A stretch of 42,518 nt of DNA from an uncultured Sphingobium sp. (GTDB lineage Bacteria > Pseudomonadota > Alphaproteobacteria > Sphingomonadales > Sphingomonadaceae): the NCBI GenBank assembly GCA_964408525.1, contig CAYOZY010000001.1:1-42518 (forward strand). Reading direction: 5' to 3'. Below are positions 6,125 to 18,358 of the stretch, piece after piece. Each line of letters begins with the position of its first letter. Within the stretch, counting starts at the first letter, position 1. A model generated the notes under the pieces. That model made no database searches and was not told the origin of the DNA. It worked only from the letters and a program-made list of their open reading frames with translations. The position numbers were made by a program, and so were the translations under genes.

Positions 6125-7053
6125 GTGAAGACGCACCCAAAAGCTGGCGCGAGCGCCTGTTCGGCGGCCTGAAGCGCACATCGGAAAAGCTGGGCGACAA
6201 TCTGACCGGACTGTTCGCCAAGCCGCTTGACGACCAGACGCTCGATGAGATTGAGGAAGCGCTAATCGTTTCGGACCTCGGTCCCAGCATGGCTATGCGC
6301 ATCCGCGACCGGCTGGCGACAGGGCGCTTCAAGCAGACGATCACCGAGGAATATTTGCGCGAGGTGATCGCGGACGAGGTTGAAAATGTGCTGCGGCCGG
6401 TGGCGAAACCGCTGGTGGCGAAAGACATGCGCCCGCAGGTTATTCTCGTGATCGGCGTCAACGGATCGGGCAAGACGACGACCATCGCCAAGCTCGCCAA
6501 GCGCTTCCAGGAGCAGGGCAAATCGGTGATGCTGGCGGCGGGCGACACATTTCGCGCGGCGGCGATCGGCCAGCTGAAAATCTGGGCGGAGCGCATCGGT
6601 GTACCCATTGTTTCCGGCAAGGAAGGCGGTGATGCGGCGGGCCTCGCGTTCGAGGCGGTGAAGCGGGCCACCGAGCTGGGCATCGACATATTGATCGTCG
6701 ACACCGCCGGGCGATTGCAGAATCGCACCGAGCTGATGGACGAGCTGGCGAAGATCCGCCGTGTGCTCGGAAGGCTCGATCCCGCCAGCCCGCATGATGT
6801 GGTGCTGGTGCTCGATGCCACATCGGGGAACAATGTGCTCAGCCAGATCGAGGTGTTCCGCGAGGTCGCGCAGGTGACGGGCCTCGTCATGACCAAGCTG
6901 GATGGCACCGCGCGCGGCGGCATGCTGGTCGCGGCGGCGGAGAAATATGGCCTGCCCATCCATGCCATCGGCATCGGCGAGACTATCGACGATCTGCGCC
7001 CGTTCGATGCCGCCGACATGGCGAAGGCGATAGCCGGGAGCGCCTATGCCTGA
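6121..7053 (+). CDS. ftsY: SRP receptor FtsY
   Basis: GVNGSGKTTT, DTFRAAA, DTAGRLQ, TKLDGTARGG. Confidence 0.97.
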   Translation: MSEDAPKSWRERLFGGLKRTSEKLGDNLTGLFAKPLDDQTLDEIEEALIVSDLGPSMAMRIRDRLATGRFKQTITEEYLREVIADEVENVLRPVAKPLVAKDMRPQVILVIGVNGSGKTTTIAKLAKRFQEQGKSVMLAAGDTFRAAAIGQLKIWAERIGVPIVSGKEGGDAAGLAFEAVKRATELGIDILIVDTAGRLQNRTELMDELAKIRRVLGRLDPASPHDVVLVLDATSGNNVLSQIEVFREVAQVTGLVMTKLDGTARGGMLVAAAEKYGLPIHAIGIGETIDDLRPFDAADMAKAIAGSAYA

Positions 7054-14882: not shown

Positions 14883-15304
14883 GCCAGAGGGTCGGGCGGT
14901 CGCGGCGGAGGAAACTCCGGCGAGGAAAGTCCGGGCTCCACGAAACAACGGTGCCGGTTAATGGCCGGCTGGGCAGAAATCTGATTTCTGGCCAAGGGAA
15001 AGTGCCACAGAGAGCAGGTCACGAAAGACTTCGGTCCCGTGAAAAGTGAAAGGGTGCGGTAAGAGCGCACCGCGTCCCCAGCAACGGCGGGCGGCACGGC
15101 AAACCCCACCGGGAGCAAGACCGAATAGGGATGGCGCGCCTTTTCGCAGCGATGTGGGAGGCAGGGTGTTTCGCCCCAGACCATCCGGGTTGGTTGCTTG
15201 AGGGACGGAGTAATCCGCCCCCTAGAGGAATGGCCGCCCATCCGTTTACGCGTCCTTCGGGATACGGTGGCGGTGGACAGAACCCGGCTTACAGACCCTC
15301 TGGC
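14883..15304 (+). ncRNA. rnpB: RNase P RNA (type A)
   Basis: GAGGAAAGTCCGGGCTCC, GGAAAGTGCCACAGA, GGGTGCGGTAAGAGCGCACC, ACAGAACCCGGCTTA; P1 helix GCCAGAGGGTC/GACCCTCTGGC. Confidence 0.97.
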
Positions 15305-15427
15305 GCTTTCTGTTTTTGGGTCGGGGCGGGGTCGGCGGGAGGCGGCAGGGGCGTCTACGCGGTGTGCGGCGAACCGGGGCCTGATGGGCGATGGTGCAGA
15401 GGGGGATCGGCGGAATGAGATTTGGTA

Positions 15428-15449
15428 TTTAGTAAACTGTCACCGTAAT
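15428..15449 (+). repeat. 22-bp motif copy R1 (TTTAGTAAACTGTCACCGTAAT)
   Basis: Read directly; followed by CCCA as in R4. Confidence 0.95.
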
Positions 15450-15505
15450 CCCATTGGAGAAGCGCCGCTTCCAGCGCAGCACCCGTGCGTACGGTGCATT
15501 ACAGC

Positions 15506-15580
15506 TTACGCCCTTCAGGGCGTGCGTCGAGCCTCCCGCAGGAGCAAAGCGAGTGCGCCGTCAAGATCAGCTGAGGCGGG
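15506..15580. repeat. Structured ~70-nt element, copy A (downstream of cargo gene 1)
   Basis: TTACGCCCTTCAGGGCGTG..CCGCAGGAGCAAAGCGAGTG..TGAGGCGGG; aligns by eye with 17069-17137. Confidence 0.8.
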
Positions 15581-15604
15581 CACCGCGTGGCAGAGAAGAT
15601 AGCA

Positions 15605-16114
15605 CTACCTGCATTGATCTTCGTACACATGCTCCAAGCGAGCGTCGTCCAGCCTGCCGTCATACTCGATGGTAATTATACGGAGATTGAGGTTGGTCTT
15701 TTCAGTTCTCAGAACGCCGCTGACGACAACCCGATGCCGGTTAGCGCGACGAAATTCTGGCGTTGCACGACCTTCTGGCAATACCATGTCCGCCGTTTCG
15801 GGCGTGCGGTGGAGTTCTGACATCATCGCGTTTTCTAAAACTAGCAAATCAGCTTCCGAGTTTCGGGGGCAACTGTCGTGCCTTTCCCTTGTCCGGGGAC
15901 GCCCTTCATCGGCGCGAACTAAAGTCGCACTGTGCTTGCCGATAAACAGGAAGCCTTCGATTGCCACGCGCTGGCCCGACAACTCGTTACGGCGCTCGAA
16001 CACTTCCTGCAGTGGCAAAGCCGTAACCGCAGGCCCCGACCTTGGCACGGGTAATGACGTGCAAGACTGCAGAATGGTAGCCGCAGCCAGCGCCGTTAAG
16101 GATCGCATCAGCAC
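15605..16114 (-). CDS. Cargo lipoprotein 1 (hypothetical, possible OB-like beta fold)
   Basis: Signal peptide ending ILQSC, AGGAG upstream of the GTG, pattern EVFERRNELSGQRVAIEGFL...RHRVVVSGVL. Confidence 0.75.
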   Translation of the reverse strand: MLMRSLTALAAATILQSCTSLPVPRSGPAVTALPLQEVFERRNELSGQRVAIEGFLFIGKHSATLVRADEGRPRTRERHDSCPRNSEADLLVLENAMMSELHRTPETADMVLPEGRATPEFRRANRHRVVVSGVLRTEKTNLNLRIITIEYDGRLDDARLEHVYEDQCR

Positions 16115-16129
16115 AATCCGTTCTCCTGC

Positions 16130-16327
16130 TTATTTGCGACGAGGCCGCCCCTGATCGATATAGTCCGATGGCTTGAAACGGCCGAACTGATCGATTTCCA
16201 CCGTGCCTTTTGAGCCATCCCACAAGTGATCGTTCCGGTAGACCTGCCCAGACGGTGATGAAAGATAGGCTGGAATGCGAACTTTTTCGCCTGCAAGCTT
16301 TTTCGCCTGCCCCCCATTACGGTCCAT
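16130..16327 (-). pseudogene. Probable truncated 3' gene fragment upstream of cargo gene 1
   Basis: 65-codon frame starting at the R2 motif and ending 15 nt before the cargo 1 start; contains PAYLSSPSGQVYR. Confidence 0.4.
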
Positions 16328-16347
16328 TACGGTGACAGTTTACTAAA
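16326..16347 (-). repeat. 22-bp motif copy R2; encodes the last codons and stop of the transposase
   Basis: ATTACGGTGACAGTTTACTAAA is the exact reverse complement of R1; reads FSKLSP* in the transposase frame. Confidence 0.95.
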
Positions 16348-17019
16348 AGCAATCAATTTGTCCTTGGGTTTAGGCCCCCGCTTTTTCGGCAACAAGGAGC
16401 GTCCTGTCCGACGTTCCAGATCGGCGATCCAGTCCGGATCGCCAAGGGGGCGTCCGGTGGTCTCCGAACGCCGCAGCGCCCGCCATGCATCGGCACAATC
16501 GTCCGACACACCAAGAAAGGCAGCGAAATCACCATAGCGTTCCAGCACTGGCGCCACCCTGACCAGCGCATCGTCCTTGCCCGAAAGATGCGCGGCGACA
16601 CTCGACCAGCGCCAGCCCGCGGCCCTGTCTACCAGGCTCGCCCGCACCGGATTGAGAGACACATAGCGCACGGCATGCGCCAGGTGGGCTTCGTCCATGA
16701 CCACAGCGCCAAATCGCCCCTGCCACAAATGTCCGGTCCAGCGATGGCGCGCATTGATGAAGCCGGTATAACGGCGGTGCGCATCGGCAAAAGTACGCCG
16801 CAGCCCATCCTCATCGGATGGCACAATAACGAGATGAACATGGTTCGGCATCAGGCAATAGCACCATATCTCCGCACCCGCCCGCTCCGCTGCCTCGGCC
16901 AGAAGGTCGCGGTACAGCGCATAATCGCCATCTTCGAAAAATGTCTGTTGCCGCCGGTTGCCGCGTTGCGTCACATGATACGGGTAACCGGGAAGTACAA
17001 GGCGAGGAAGACGAGCCAT
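16327..17019 (-). CDS. REP-associated tyrosine transposase (RAYT; Y1 HUH, IS200/IS605-related)
   Basis: YPYHVTQRGNRRQ, HUH motif MPNHVHL, GHLWQGRF, catalytic-Tyr region YVSLNPVRA, WRWSS; frame intact; no tnpB nearby. Confidence 0.92.
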   Translation of the reverse strand: MARLPRLVLPGYPYHVTQRGNRRQQTFFEDGDYALYRDLLAEAAERAGAEIWCYCLMPNHVHLVIVPSDEDGLRRTFADAHRRYTGFINARHRWTGHLWQGRFGAVVMDEAHLAHAVRYVSLNPVRASLVDRAAGWRWSSVAAHLSGKDDALVRVAPVLERYGDFAAFLGVSDDCADAWRALRRSETTGRPLGDPDWIADLERRTGRSLLPKKRGPKPKDKLIAFSKLSP

Positions 17020-17045
17020 GCCTGCCTTATAACCAATATCATGCT

Positions 17046-17067
17046 TTTAGTAAACTGTCACCGTAAT
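17046..17067 (+). repeat. 22-bp motif copy R3
   Basis: Identical to R1; the perfect inverted match with R2 extends to 26 bp (16326-16351 vs 17042-17067). Confidence 0.95.
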
Positions 17068-17068
17068 A

Positions 17069-17137
17069 TTACGCCTTCGGCGTGAGTCAGGACCACCGCA
17101 CGAGCAATGCGAGTGAGAAAGCAATGGGTGAGGCGGG
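17069..17137. repeat. Structured ~70-nt element, copy B (downstream of cargo gene 2)
   Basis: TTACGCCTTCGGCGTG..CCGCACGAGCAATGCGAGTG..TGAGGCGGG; aligns by eye with 15506-15580. Confidence 0.8.
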
Positions 17138-17148
17138 GCGACCCAGCG

Positions 17149-17586
17149 TTAATGTTTCAAGCTTTGATATTTTTCTCTAAGATCAATATCATCAACAATT
17201 AAAGCGGATCCAACAAAACATCCATCAATATCATTCCGGGAGTAATTCCTGTAATAAACTCCCTTTATAACAATTTTCCTGTTATCTAAAAATGTCCTTG
17301 GGCCTTCCTCTTTGAGGAAATTGCTCTTTATTATGACACACGCGTCGTTAACGCCAGACATCGTCATATTTTTATCATATATTTTCATCTCCCAAGGATG
17401 AACCTTGGAAGCTATCTGGCCATAGATAAAGACTGTTTTCCCGTCATAAGCCTCTCCTCTTGAATTGACCTCGTGCGGACTCAAAACAGGCTGCTCATAT
17501 GCATGTCCTCTTTCGGACAAAGAAGGAGCGCATCCAGTCAACTCGATTAAGGATGCAACCAAAAATATAATGATGTGTTTTTTCAT
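17149..17586 (-). CDS. Cargo lipoprotein 2 (hypothetical, distant homologue of cargo 1)
   Basis: MKKH, hydrophobic core, lipobox LTGC; EVNSRGEAYDGKTVFIYGQI...NRKIVIKGVY; strongly AT-rich. Confidence 0.8.
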   Translation of the reverse strand: MKKHIIIFLVASLIELTGCAPSLSERGHAYEQPVLSPHEVNSRGEAYDGKTVFIYGQIASKVHPWEMKIYDKNMTMSGVNDACVIIKSNFLKEEGPRTFLDNRKIVIKGVYYRNYSRNDIDGCFVGSALIVDDIDLREKYQSLKH

Positions 17587-17634
17587 TTACTTCTTCACCT
17601 TCGGCAAAAGAAAATTCTTTTGTAAGGTGTTGGG

Positions 17635-17656
17635 ATTACGGTGACAGTTTACCAAA
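17635..17656 (-). repeat. 22-bp motif copy R4 (one mismatch)
   Basis: ATTACGGTGACAGTTTACCAAA; reverse complement TTTGGTAAACTGTCACCGTAAT followed by CCCA. Confidence 0.93.
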
Positions 17657-17674
17657 TGCACCCCGTCACTCCCC

Positions 17675-18358
17675 TCATTCATCCCCGGTCGGTTTGGGCA
17701 GCAGCAGCGCCAGCAATATCGCGCGGCATTCGCCGCAGATGATGCCGTCGATCATTTCCGGGCGGAAGCGGCGCTGGAACGCGCGCACCGCCGCCTCCGG
17801 CTCCTTGATGTCATAGCCGAAGCGTTCGAGCGCCAGCATGAAGGCGCTGTCGGACCAAAGCGGGTCCATCAGATGCTTGGTGGGGCGGGGCAGCGCGAGC
17901 CGCAGCCGCGCGAGCTTTGCCCAAGGGAACAGCTCGCCGGGGTCGAGTTTGCGGTCGGGCGCGACATCGCTGTGGCCGACGATATTGCCGCGGGTGATGC
18001 CGTGGCGCGTAACGATCTCGTGCACAAGCGGGATCAGCGCCTCGATCTGCGCGTCGGGAAATTCGCGATAGCCCCATTCATGGCCGGGATTGACGATCTC
18101 TATGCCGATGCTCGCGGAATTGACGTCGCTGATGCCGCGCCACCAGCTCTTGCCCGCGTGCCAGGCGCGCTTGTCCTCCGCCACCATGCGGACGATCTCG
18201 CCCTCCTCGGTCACGACATAGTGCGCGGAGACCTTCGATTCCGGGTTGGCGAGCCAGTCGATCGCGCTCTGCGCATCGGGCATGCCGGTATAGTGCAATA
18301 CCAGCATCGTCACCGGCAGCTTGCGTTCGTCGAAATTGGGCGACAGCCTCTCGATCAC
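17675..18358 (-). CDS. N-acetylmuramoyl-L-alanine amidase (Amidase_2, AmpD/AmiD-like)
   Basis: LVLHYTGM, VSAHYVV, RAWHAG, SIGIEIVN, GHSDVAPDRKLDPG. Confidence 0.93.
   Translation of the reverse strand: MIERLSPNFDERKLPVTMLVLHYTGMPDAQSAIDWLANPESKVSAHYVVTEEGEIVRMVAEDKRAWHAGKSWWRGISDVNSASIGIEIVNPGHEWGYREFPDAQIEALIPLVHEIVTRHGITRGNIVGHSDVAPDRKLDPGELFPWAKLARLRLALPRPTKHLMDPLWSDSAFMLALERFGYDIKEPEAAVRAFQRRFRPEMIDGIICGECRAILLALLLPKPTGDE

Follow-up and report, generated by a model that had tools for sequence, protein, structure and literature searches.

In the 42,518-nucleotide (nt) window analyzed here, the whole stretch of contig CAYOZY010000001.1 from an uncultured Sphingobium sp., the gene for RNase P RNA (rnpB) is separated from an amidase gene by an array in which four copies of a terminal inverted repeat (TIR) alternate with a transposase gene and two segments of other DNA, referred to below as cargo 1 and cargo 2. 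The transposase is a RAYT-like Y1 HUH enzyme of the kind called TIRYT; together with the two TIRs around its gene it forms a TIRtron, and the remaining two repeats are orphan copies of the same TIR. Comparisons of sequence favor, with a confidence somewhat above even, an explanation in which foreign DNA has been joined to the outer tips of these repeats: the enzyme would likely nick 2-4 nt outside the repeat, and such tip-directed joining would build the array.

Terminal inverted repeats and their transposase

The 22-bp repeat motif occurs at 15428-15449 (R1, plus strand), 16326-16347 (R2, minus strand), 17046-17067 (R3, plus strand) and 17635-17656 (R4, minus strand, with 1 mismatch), compared with 0 copies expected in 100 shuffles. 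A preliminary description of the window had reported these four positions and orientations, enclosed spacings of 876 and 567 bp, and the absence of any further copy. The recount and the shuffles bear this out, and a scan of the 2.91-Mb assembly (85% complete) yields only these four copies, even when 4 mismatches are allowed. The same sequence is present in runs of other studies, as one contig of run X3 that covers 15280-17431 with 1 difference and as pieces of the locus with 0 differences in runs X4 and X5, which shows that the assembled locus is real; the small-share runs X12, X13 and X15 hold short pieces only.

R2 (16326..16351, minus strand) and R3 (17042..17067, plus strand) are perfect partners, complementary over 26 nt (100%), that lie at the 3′ and 5′ ends of the transposase gene, respectively, with R2 overlapping the last transposase codons. 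In the loci of relatives (n=77), whose enzymes share 60-83% identity, the motif is found about 47 nt upstream of the start codon and again, inverted, at the 3′ end, and R2 and R3 are therefore the TIRs of the TIRYT gene. R1 (15428..15449, plus strand) and R4 (17635..17660, minus strand) are orphan TIR copies. The TIR core, GGTGACAG, fits GGGGWSAS at 7 of 8 letters, and GGGGACAG variants exist in some homologs. All but one of the 56 gene-containing TIR pairs are 718-852 bp in size. A tie between the motif and this clade of enzymes is supported by its presence in 69 of the 77 homologous loci (210 matches, compared with 1.7 in shuffles) and by co-occurrence in one draw of 300 family genomes, where the enzyme was found in 15 of the 34 motif-positive and 29 of the 266 motif-negative genomes, counts that include kin and so are not independent, and in 10 of the 10 genomes with at least four motifs.

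The transposase gene (16327..17019, minus strand) encodes 230 amino acids (aa) that match Pfam Y1_Tnp (E 1.4e-10) and contain the motifs H60-V-H62 and Y119-VSL-NP. The segment H60-V-H62 and Y119 are invariant across 14 homologs, which also conserve YVSLNP and a C-terminal extension to about residue 220, as is characteristic of the Y---NP enzymes of TnpA-Y1 subclass 2.1. TIRYTs have been equated with this subclass (Quentin et al., 2018, PMC6006769) and with RAYT group 1 (Bertels et al., 2017, PMC5581495; 10.1101/2021.07.10.451892). The Y---NP signature, the long C-terminal extension and the lack of REP hairpins are common to that group and to the enzyme of the window, and because the latter has no Pfam helix-turn-helix domain, subclass 2.1.1 is more likely than subclass 2.1.2. 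The best match in both sequence and structure is E. coli TnpA-REP (PDB 4ER8), and the score against the REP_Tyr_transpos profile NF047646 is 73.1 bits, below the cut-off of 80. Against NF033573, the profile of IS200/IS605 TnpA, the score is 15.1 bits (cut-off 55); this, together with the presence of TIRs, places the element outside IS200/IS605.

A leaderless promoter is predicted at 17026..17054 (minus strand), with a -35 box, TTTACT, inside R3, followed by 17 nt, the -10 box and 6 nt to the ATG. This geometry is common to 38 of 43 homologs, and a consensus promoter scan did not list the predicted promoter. The upstream TIR thus likely supplies the -35 box for a leaderless transcript, as judged from promoter geometry. 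TIRYT genes within the same genome are 95-97% identical in 3 of 4 pairs, which argues that the unit copies itself.

Several other transposase genes were observed. The genome to which the window belongs, G000, contains a second, distant Y1 transposase (C314:1658-2050; about 30% identity) that is not accompanied by this TIR. In G179 (C1:56949-60988), three TIRYT-like genes follow one another at spacings of about 1.4-1.9 kb, each with one stop inside the match, and nine short enzyme-gene fragments, mostly of residues 1-60, are scattered over several contigs of G040, where a full copy was not found. With regard to mobility on phages and plasmids, one viral contig carries the motif, and no plasmid carries the transposase gene at E 1e-40.

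Duplications and breakpoints at the repeat tips

On the minus strand, the locus reads amidase, R4, cargo 2, R3, transposase gene, R2, cargo 1, R1 and rnpB. Both cargos sit between outer TIR tips, those of R4 and R3 and those of R2 and R1, respectively, and the inner ends of the orphans face host DNA: that of R1 is directed toward rnpB, and that of R4 is fused to host DNA 14 nt from the amidase stop codon. To place this arrangement among its relatives, a pooled set was assembled from the homolog loci, the regions around motif matches in family genomes and 138 metagenome stretches (a partial scan). It contains 417 distinct TIR groups: 137 that flank a full gene, 41 that flank a gene fragment, 72 in mini-elements, 145 orphans and 22 at contig edges. 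Pairs whose inner ends face each other with no gene between them are small, 49 of 51 measuring at most 405 bp, and outer-facing pairs are gene-sized (288 to 5568 bp in 38 of 41).

The 36 outer-facing segments of 250-2600 bp, with a median of 760 bp, were treated as cargos; they include two Y1 genes with misread ends (L081, L211), and one L319 match lies in rnpB, all of which were kept in the counts. Cargo GC content falls below that of the rest of its own locus in 28 of 33 scorable segments (0.49 compared with 0.61). Of 108 orphan TIRs, 84 have a lower GC content on their outer side than on their inner side (0.50 compared with 0.58).

Scars are found at the tips themselves. Exact tandem copies anchored at the tip are present at 84 of 436 TIRs, compared with 8 of 429 inner ends and 18 of 1493 random outer places, and these duplications start 1-4 nt outside the TIR. 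Of the 93 tandem duplications that overlap the TIR core, 91 have their start outside it, usually at -3 or -4. At -2/-3, agreement between the two ends of one element is only 36-39%, yet the duplications include those letters; because flank letters are copied in this way, the duplications are made locally, starting just outside the repeat. Isolate and single-contig assemblies likewise contain tip copies (8 partial ones at 40 TIRs, seen in assemblies, not raw reads). In the window, an exact 10-nt tandem copy of the R2 tip, which includes 2 nt outside the repeat, resides at 16314..16323 (plus strand).

Breakpoints are positioned similarly. Of 36 outer flanks for which an intact counterpart exists, 14 are broken at a distance of 1-7 nt from the core of the repeat, with a mode of 2-3, and the broken sequence resumes at the far junction in 0 of 18 cases, L167 having a weak match 70 nt inside. 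Because flanks break at the tip with no continuation on the far side, the tips are replacement joints, not clean insertion sites. The earlier suggestion that the enzyme acts at these motifs therefore holds to the extent that tip-anchored duplications and breakpoints at a fixed offset make the tips look like sites of its action.

Such scars would be the footprint expected of a nick, extension of the 3′-OH and rejoining at the tip. HUH chemistry involves a 5′-phosphotyrosine and a 3′-OH that primes or attacks (PMC8266576), and with this chemistry a nick-extension account of the tip scars is the simplest one. The enzyme would nick 2-4 nt outside the repeat, on the strand and at the position suggested by the scars, and would stay bound by a 5′-phosphotyrosine to the strand reading ATTACGG inward, leaving a 3′-OH on the flank. 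Extension of that 3′-OH by a few nt into the TIR, followed by religation, would yield a tip duplication; attack by another 3′ end instead would replace the old flank with new DNA. Repeated events of this sort, combined with the loss of element bodies, would generate arrays of tip, cargo and tip with orphan and mini ends.

Other features of the pooled loci are recorded here as observations. At L110:8401-8998, at L111:4100-4208 and in L211, low-GC genes alternate with mini-elements of 54-88 bp, each made of two fused TIRs, to form arrays, and mini-element arrays in G226 are distant from the enzyme gene. Some TIR tips adjoin IS110-family pieces or are split by them (L086:5450-5810 and 6582-6780; L088:8778-10127), as if the TIR were an IS110 target. 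Neighboring genes are co-directed with the element in 39 of 47 upstream and 28 of 50 downstream cases, figures that rest on crude calls of open reading frames (ORFs) and were not used as support. A motif that we take to be an Rhs-junction motif is found within 3 kb of TIRs in 18 of 214 loci, the controls being unmatched for accessory DNA; the density of this presumed Rhs motif near TIRs is 3.3 per 100 kb, compared with 0.14 in G000 and 0 in 351 kb of control loci.

Cargo genes and an oriT-like sequence

Cargo 1 (15450..16313; GC 0.57) begins inside a gene. The 3′ tail of this longer gene (16130..16276, minus strand), which is in frame with an ATG overlapping the transposase stop codon, shares 83% identity with the C-terminal part of P0010 and likely encodes part of a DUF4329/JAB-type polymorphic toxin domain (atlas scores of 0.92-0.94 to DUF4329/Toxin-JAB1 clusters; a weak Pfam match, E 0.015, for P0011). 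Next to it is the gene for predicted lipoprotein 1 (15605..16114, minus strand; 167-169 aa), which has no Pfam family, was not found in 400 other genomes of the order, and by its position is a putative immunity-type partner. The overlap of the transposase stop (16325-16329) with the ATG occurs at the R2 tip and is in frame with the toxin-like tail; the downstream lipoprotein could therefore be co-expressed with the enzyme.

Cargo 2 (GC 0.41) contains the gene for predicted lipoprotein 2 (17149..17586, minus strand; 145 aa), likewise with no Pfam family. The two lipoproteins show a weak likeness (probability 22%) that leaves homology open. The preliminary description had assigned both segments the same internal order of gene tail, lipoprotein gene and shared structured element. 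Both do contain a small ORF with a lipobox-like Cys, along with a related element, but a gene tail is established for cargo 1 only, its putative equivalent in cargo 2 being a 15-codon frame.

The shared element folds no better than shuffles (z -0.56, -0.76 and 0.04) and is a MOBF (TrwC) oriT-like sequence, a likely origin of conjugation with a predicted nic, whole in cargo 1 and cut in cargo 2. In cargo 1 it occupies 15473..15581 (plus strand), with the predicted nic between 15497/15498, 48 nt from R1, and it matches a profile built from 15 TIR-free loci of same-genus genomes (E 9e-18), which contain near-identical sequences. In 11 of these 15 loci trwB begins on the 5′ side of the site, and trwC is seen in 7 of them (6-kb loci). 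The nic region resembles the R388 nic oligonucleotide (PMC4176350), so that the cargo genes lie on the leading side. As in the MOBF oriT-trwABC region of R388 (PMC4176350, PMC4853378), a short hairpin is followed by TGCGTA-NN-GT-N-Y and then AT, which in relatives precede a small trwA-like gene, trwB and trwC; the present locus differs in containing the oriT alone with under 0.9 kb of the leading side, and its nicking is predicted.

The truncated relative in cargo 2 (17068..17135, plus strand) shares 78% identity with the cargo 1 copy over 50 nt; it starts about 7 nt past where the nic would lie and lacks the nic region. A sub-motif of the two copies is found only at these two places in 401 genomes, the pattern having been built from them, and is absent from 400 family genomes besides G000. 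For both cargos, the likely source is the leading region next to the oriT of MOBF conjugative elements. Their donor DNA was not found in 162 genus genomes, nor in plasmids beyond the oriT. In run X7, a sequence near-identical to 15474-16276 (22 differing letters and 8 gaps) diverges from the window at both TIR-proximal ends, and the oriT, lipoprotein gene and gene tail therefore travel together without TIRs. A 16-nt imperfect direct repeat (16276-16307) lies between R2 and the X7-matching part of cargo 1, and several TrwC relaxase pieces are present on G000 contigs C57, C26, C80, C83 and C116, with no strong match to the oriT profile outside the window.

Two more general roles for the element were considered and rejected. 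It is not a regular part of TIR cargo, given that 0 of 246 other TIR loci match the profile at E < 1, and the oriT thus characterizes the donors at this locus rather than the system. Nor is it an attC- or REP-like cassette site, in view of the absent fold signal, the lack of any Rfam match except rnpB, and its location before trwB/trwC elsewhere. The proposal that a shared structured element forms part of a cassette is abandoned on these grounds.

The proximity of both cargo ends to the predicted nic, the integrase activity of TrwC (PMC4176350) and the TrwC relaxases encoded by G000 bring to mind delivery by a MOBF relaxase, which would integrate the leading end of an incoming T-strand at or near TIR tips, with TIRYT having a minor part. 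This is very unlikely, because neither junction falls at the predicted nic (one lies 48 nt before it, the other about 7 nt after it), and other TIR cargos have no oriT yet bear the same tip scars. A bolder proposal, which seems rather improbable, is that TIRYTs are end-capture enzymes: sitting at a nicked TIR tip, they would ligate to chromosomal arrays mobile DNA that arrives with a free 3′ end, in this case the leading ends of two MOBF conjugative elements, and would thereby archive toxin-tail and immunity genes, as an HUH-based acquisition system with no dedicated cassette site.

Across the pooled cargos, 13 of 81 ORFs match a Pfam family, and these include DUF4265, a Colicin_E5 tail, two toxin-antitoxin pairs, Sel1, IS110 and a thioredoxin-AAA protein. 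Apart from an IS110 piece and the two misclassed Y1 genes, the 36 cargos have no genes in common with one another; the cargo apparently shared by L086 and L088 was rejected as that IS110 piece. The expectation that the enclosed DNA is foreign and variable is upheld, the cargos being AT-richer than their loci and unrelated to one another, with differing content of the rnpB-amidase interval in relatives.

Alternating repeats with gene-sized, variable cargo, along with arrays of mini-elements and cargo in some genomes (L110, L111, L211), could also suggest an integron- or shufflon-like system of repeat-bounded cassettes that are excised, inverted and exchanged, as first proposed for this locus. 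Of the explanations considered here it is the least probable: cargo ends cut through genes, no cassette site is shared beyond the TIR, no cargo recurs among the 36, and 8 runs (contigs only, from which rare forms drop out) yielded neither a joint nor a circle or inversion at the TIRs of this locus. An exact empty site was not found in a close strain, and a 15309-17677 joint in run X3, a candidate for one, was rejected because its source is a different organism of higher abundance. Shuffling of the integron or shufflon type is unsupported, since no excision, inversion or moved cassette was seen, and the segments behave as one-off acquisitions, not reusable cassettes. The locus is not an integron in kind either, having an HUH enzyme, cargo ends that cut genes and an oriT-like shared element. 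What survives of the earlier interpretation is the link between motif and clade, the foreign and variable DNA and the tips as sites of action; the cassette element and the excision, swapping or inversion of cargo do not.

The rnpB-amidase site, known systems and significance

The host boundaries of the array are rnpB on the left (14884..15307, plus strand; RNase P RNA class A, Rfam RF00010, 262.8 bits) and an N-acetylmuramoyl-L-alanine amidase gene on the right (17675..18358, minus strand; Pfam Amidase_2, E 1.5e-38). On the inner side of R1 is a 118-bp GC-rich (0.69) stretch (15310..15427), the first ~20 nt of which resemble a shortened 5′ TIR leader; it is strand-skewed and, beyond the TIR, has no match in the genome or the fetched loci. 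In most congeners rnpB has the opposite orientation and lies mostly directly beside the amidase gene. Relative to the dnaJ-like and amidase genes, rnpB of the window is inverted compared with most congeners, and a sub-clade with the window's orientation has a variable insert after rnpB.

Because this spot is a hotspot in its own right, a passive origin of the array is kept alive. TIRtrons would have inserted repeatedly into an accessory region containing conjugative debris, host deletions would have removed their bodies and one flank, and orphan TIRs would mark old insertions, the enzyme bringing no cargo. Such an origin is possible, if somewhat doubtful. The rnpB-amidase interval varies without TIRs, decay is common (of 417 TIRs, 41 adjoin gene fragments and 72 belong to mini-elements), most TIRtrons lack additional TIRs in their vicinity, and no cargo has been seen to move. 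It leaves unexplained, however, the foreign outer and host-like inner sides of orphan TIRs (84 of 108), the breakpoints at a fixed offset that lack a continuation, and the two independent oriT-proximal pieces that each end at a tip.

Tip-directed joining, although favored, has a number of observations against it. At the site itself, 8 of 20 fetched regions share the window's orientation; their intervals, 919-3348 bp of other DNA, contain neither a TIR nor a transposase or cargo gene. Of 35 complete TIRtrons with 3.2-kb flanks, 20 are without a further TIR in those flanks, and the two-sided layout of the window is seen in just 1. No enzyme was found in 19 of the 34 motif-positive family genomes, and the GC polarity does not extend to mini-elements (11 of 29) or to TIRs that flank gene fragments (11 of 21). 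Among the 14 tip breakpoints, about 4 represent duplicated TIR-bearing DNA, and the element is complete in only 6 of the 18 continuation cases. The general oriT profile misses the cargo 2 copy, and none of the 246 other TIR loci searched matches it at E < 1. Finally, we know of no activity for subclass 2.1 and of no biochemistry for any TIRYT.

The kind of element is known, the terms TIRtron and TIRYT having been introduced by Di Nocera, De Gregorio and Rocco (2013, PMC3733652), so that the pairing of a RAYT with non-palindromic inverted repeats, which had seemed surprising at first, has precedent. The TIRtrons described there resemble the present one in having a RAYT-like HUH/Tyr gene, long non-palindromic TIRs at a fixed distance, and single, dimeric and clustered TIRs in the genome; further TIRs are represented here by R1 and R4 and, in relatives, by the 145 orphan and 72 mini-element TIRs of 417. 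In contrast, cargo between outer tips, GC polarity, tip duplications and a cut site are not described in the available portion of that paper, and no activity is tested in it. A search of the literature on TIRYT/TIRtron, gene capture by Y1 enzymes, Rhs arrays with IS200 and captured oriT regions, from which most subscription journals were excluded, likewise found nothing on cargo polarity, tip scars or a cut site. These three, the last of them predicted, appear to be new features of an otherwise known kind of element.

REPtrons, the RAYTs of groups 2 and 3 (E. coli TnpA-REP, 4ER8; PMC8266576), have the same fold and the same expected chemistry, and act on GTAG-tagged hairpins, their REPINs being gene-free. 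The repeat of the window, by contrast, does not fold and exists in 4 genome copies rather than hundreds, unlike the palindromic, high-copy REPs. The orphan immunity arrays formed by sequential displacement that Kirchberger et al. (2017, PMC5361080) described similarly join a toxin-gene tail to a downstream small gene; homologous recombination operates there, whereas the junctions here lie at TIR tips and the immunity function is putative.

IS91/ISCR elements, Helitrons and IS26-type arrays carry adjacent DNA by means of one fixed and one variable end and leave arrays with shared or orphan ends. The present locus differs in its two symmetric TIRs and its small Y1 enzyme without a helicase, and no ori/ter asymmetry is seen. 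By analogy, the locus may work somewhat like one-ended rolling-circle transduction or an IS26-type array, while being a member of neither.

Enzymes of subclass 2.1 form the second-largest group of their kind, present in 14.9% of strains (PMC6006769), and RAYT group 1 has the highest duplication rate of the RAYT groups (PMC5581495). The scars predict a cut site (2-4 nt outside the repeat), a strand and a product, namely new DNA joined at the tip. If tip-directed joining is wrong, the locus is an ordinary TIRtron in a variable spot. If it is right, a small HUH enzyme would constitute an unrecognized route by which short foreign genes, some of them toxin-immunity-like, enter chromosomes.

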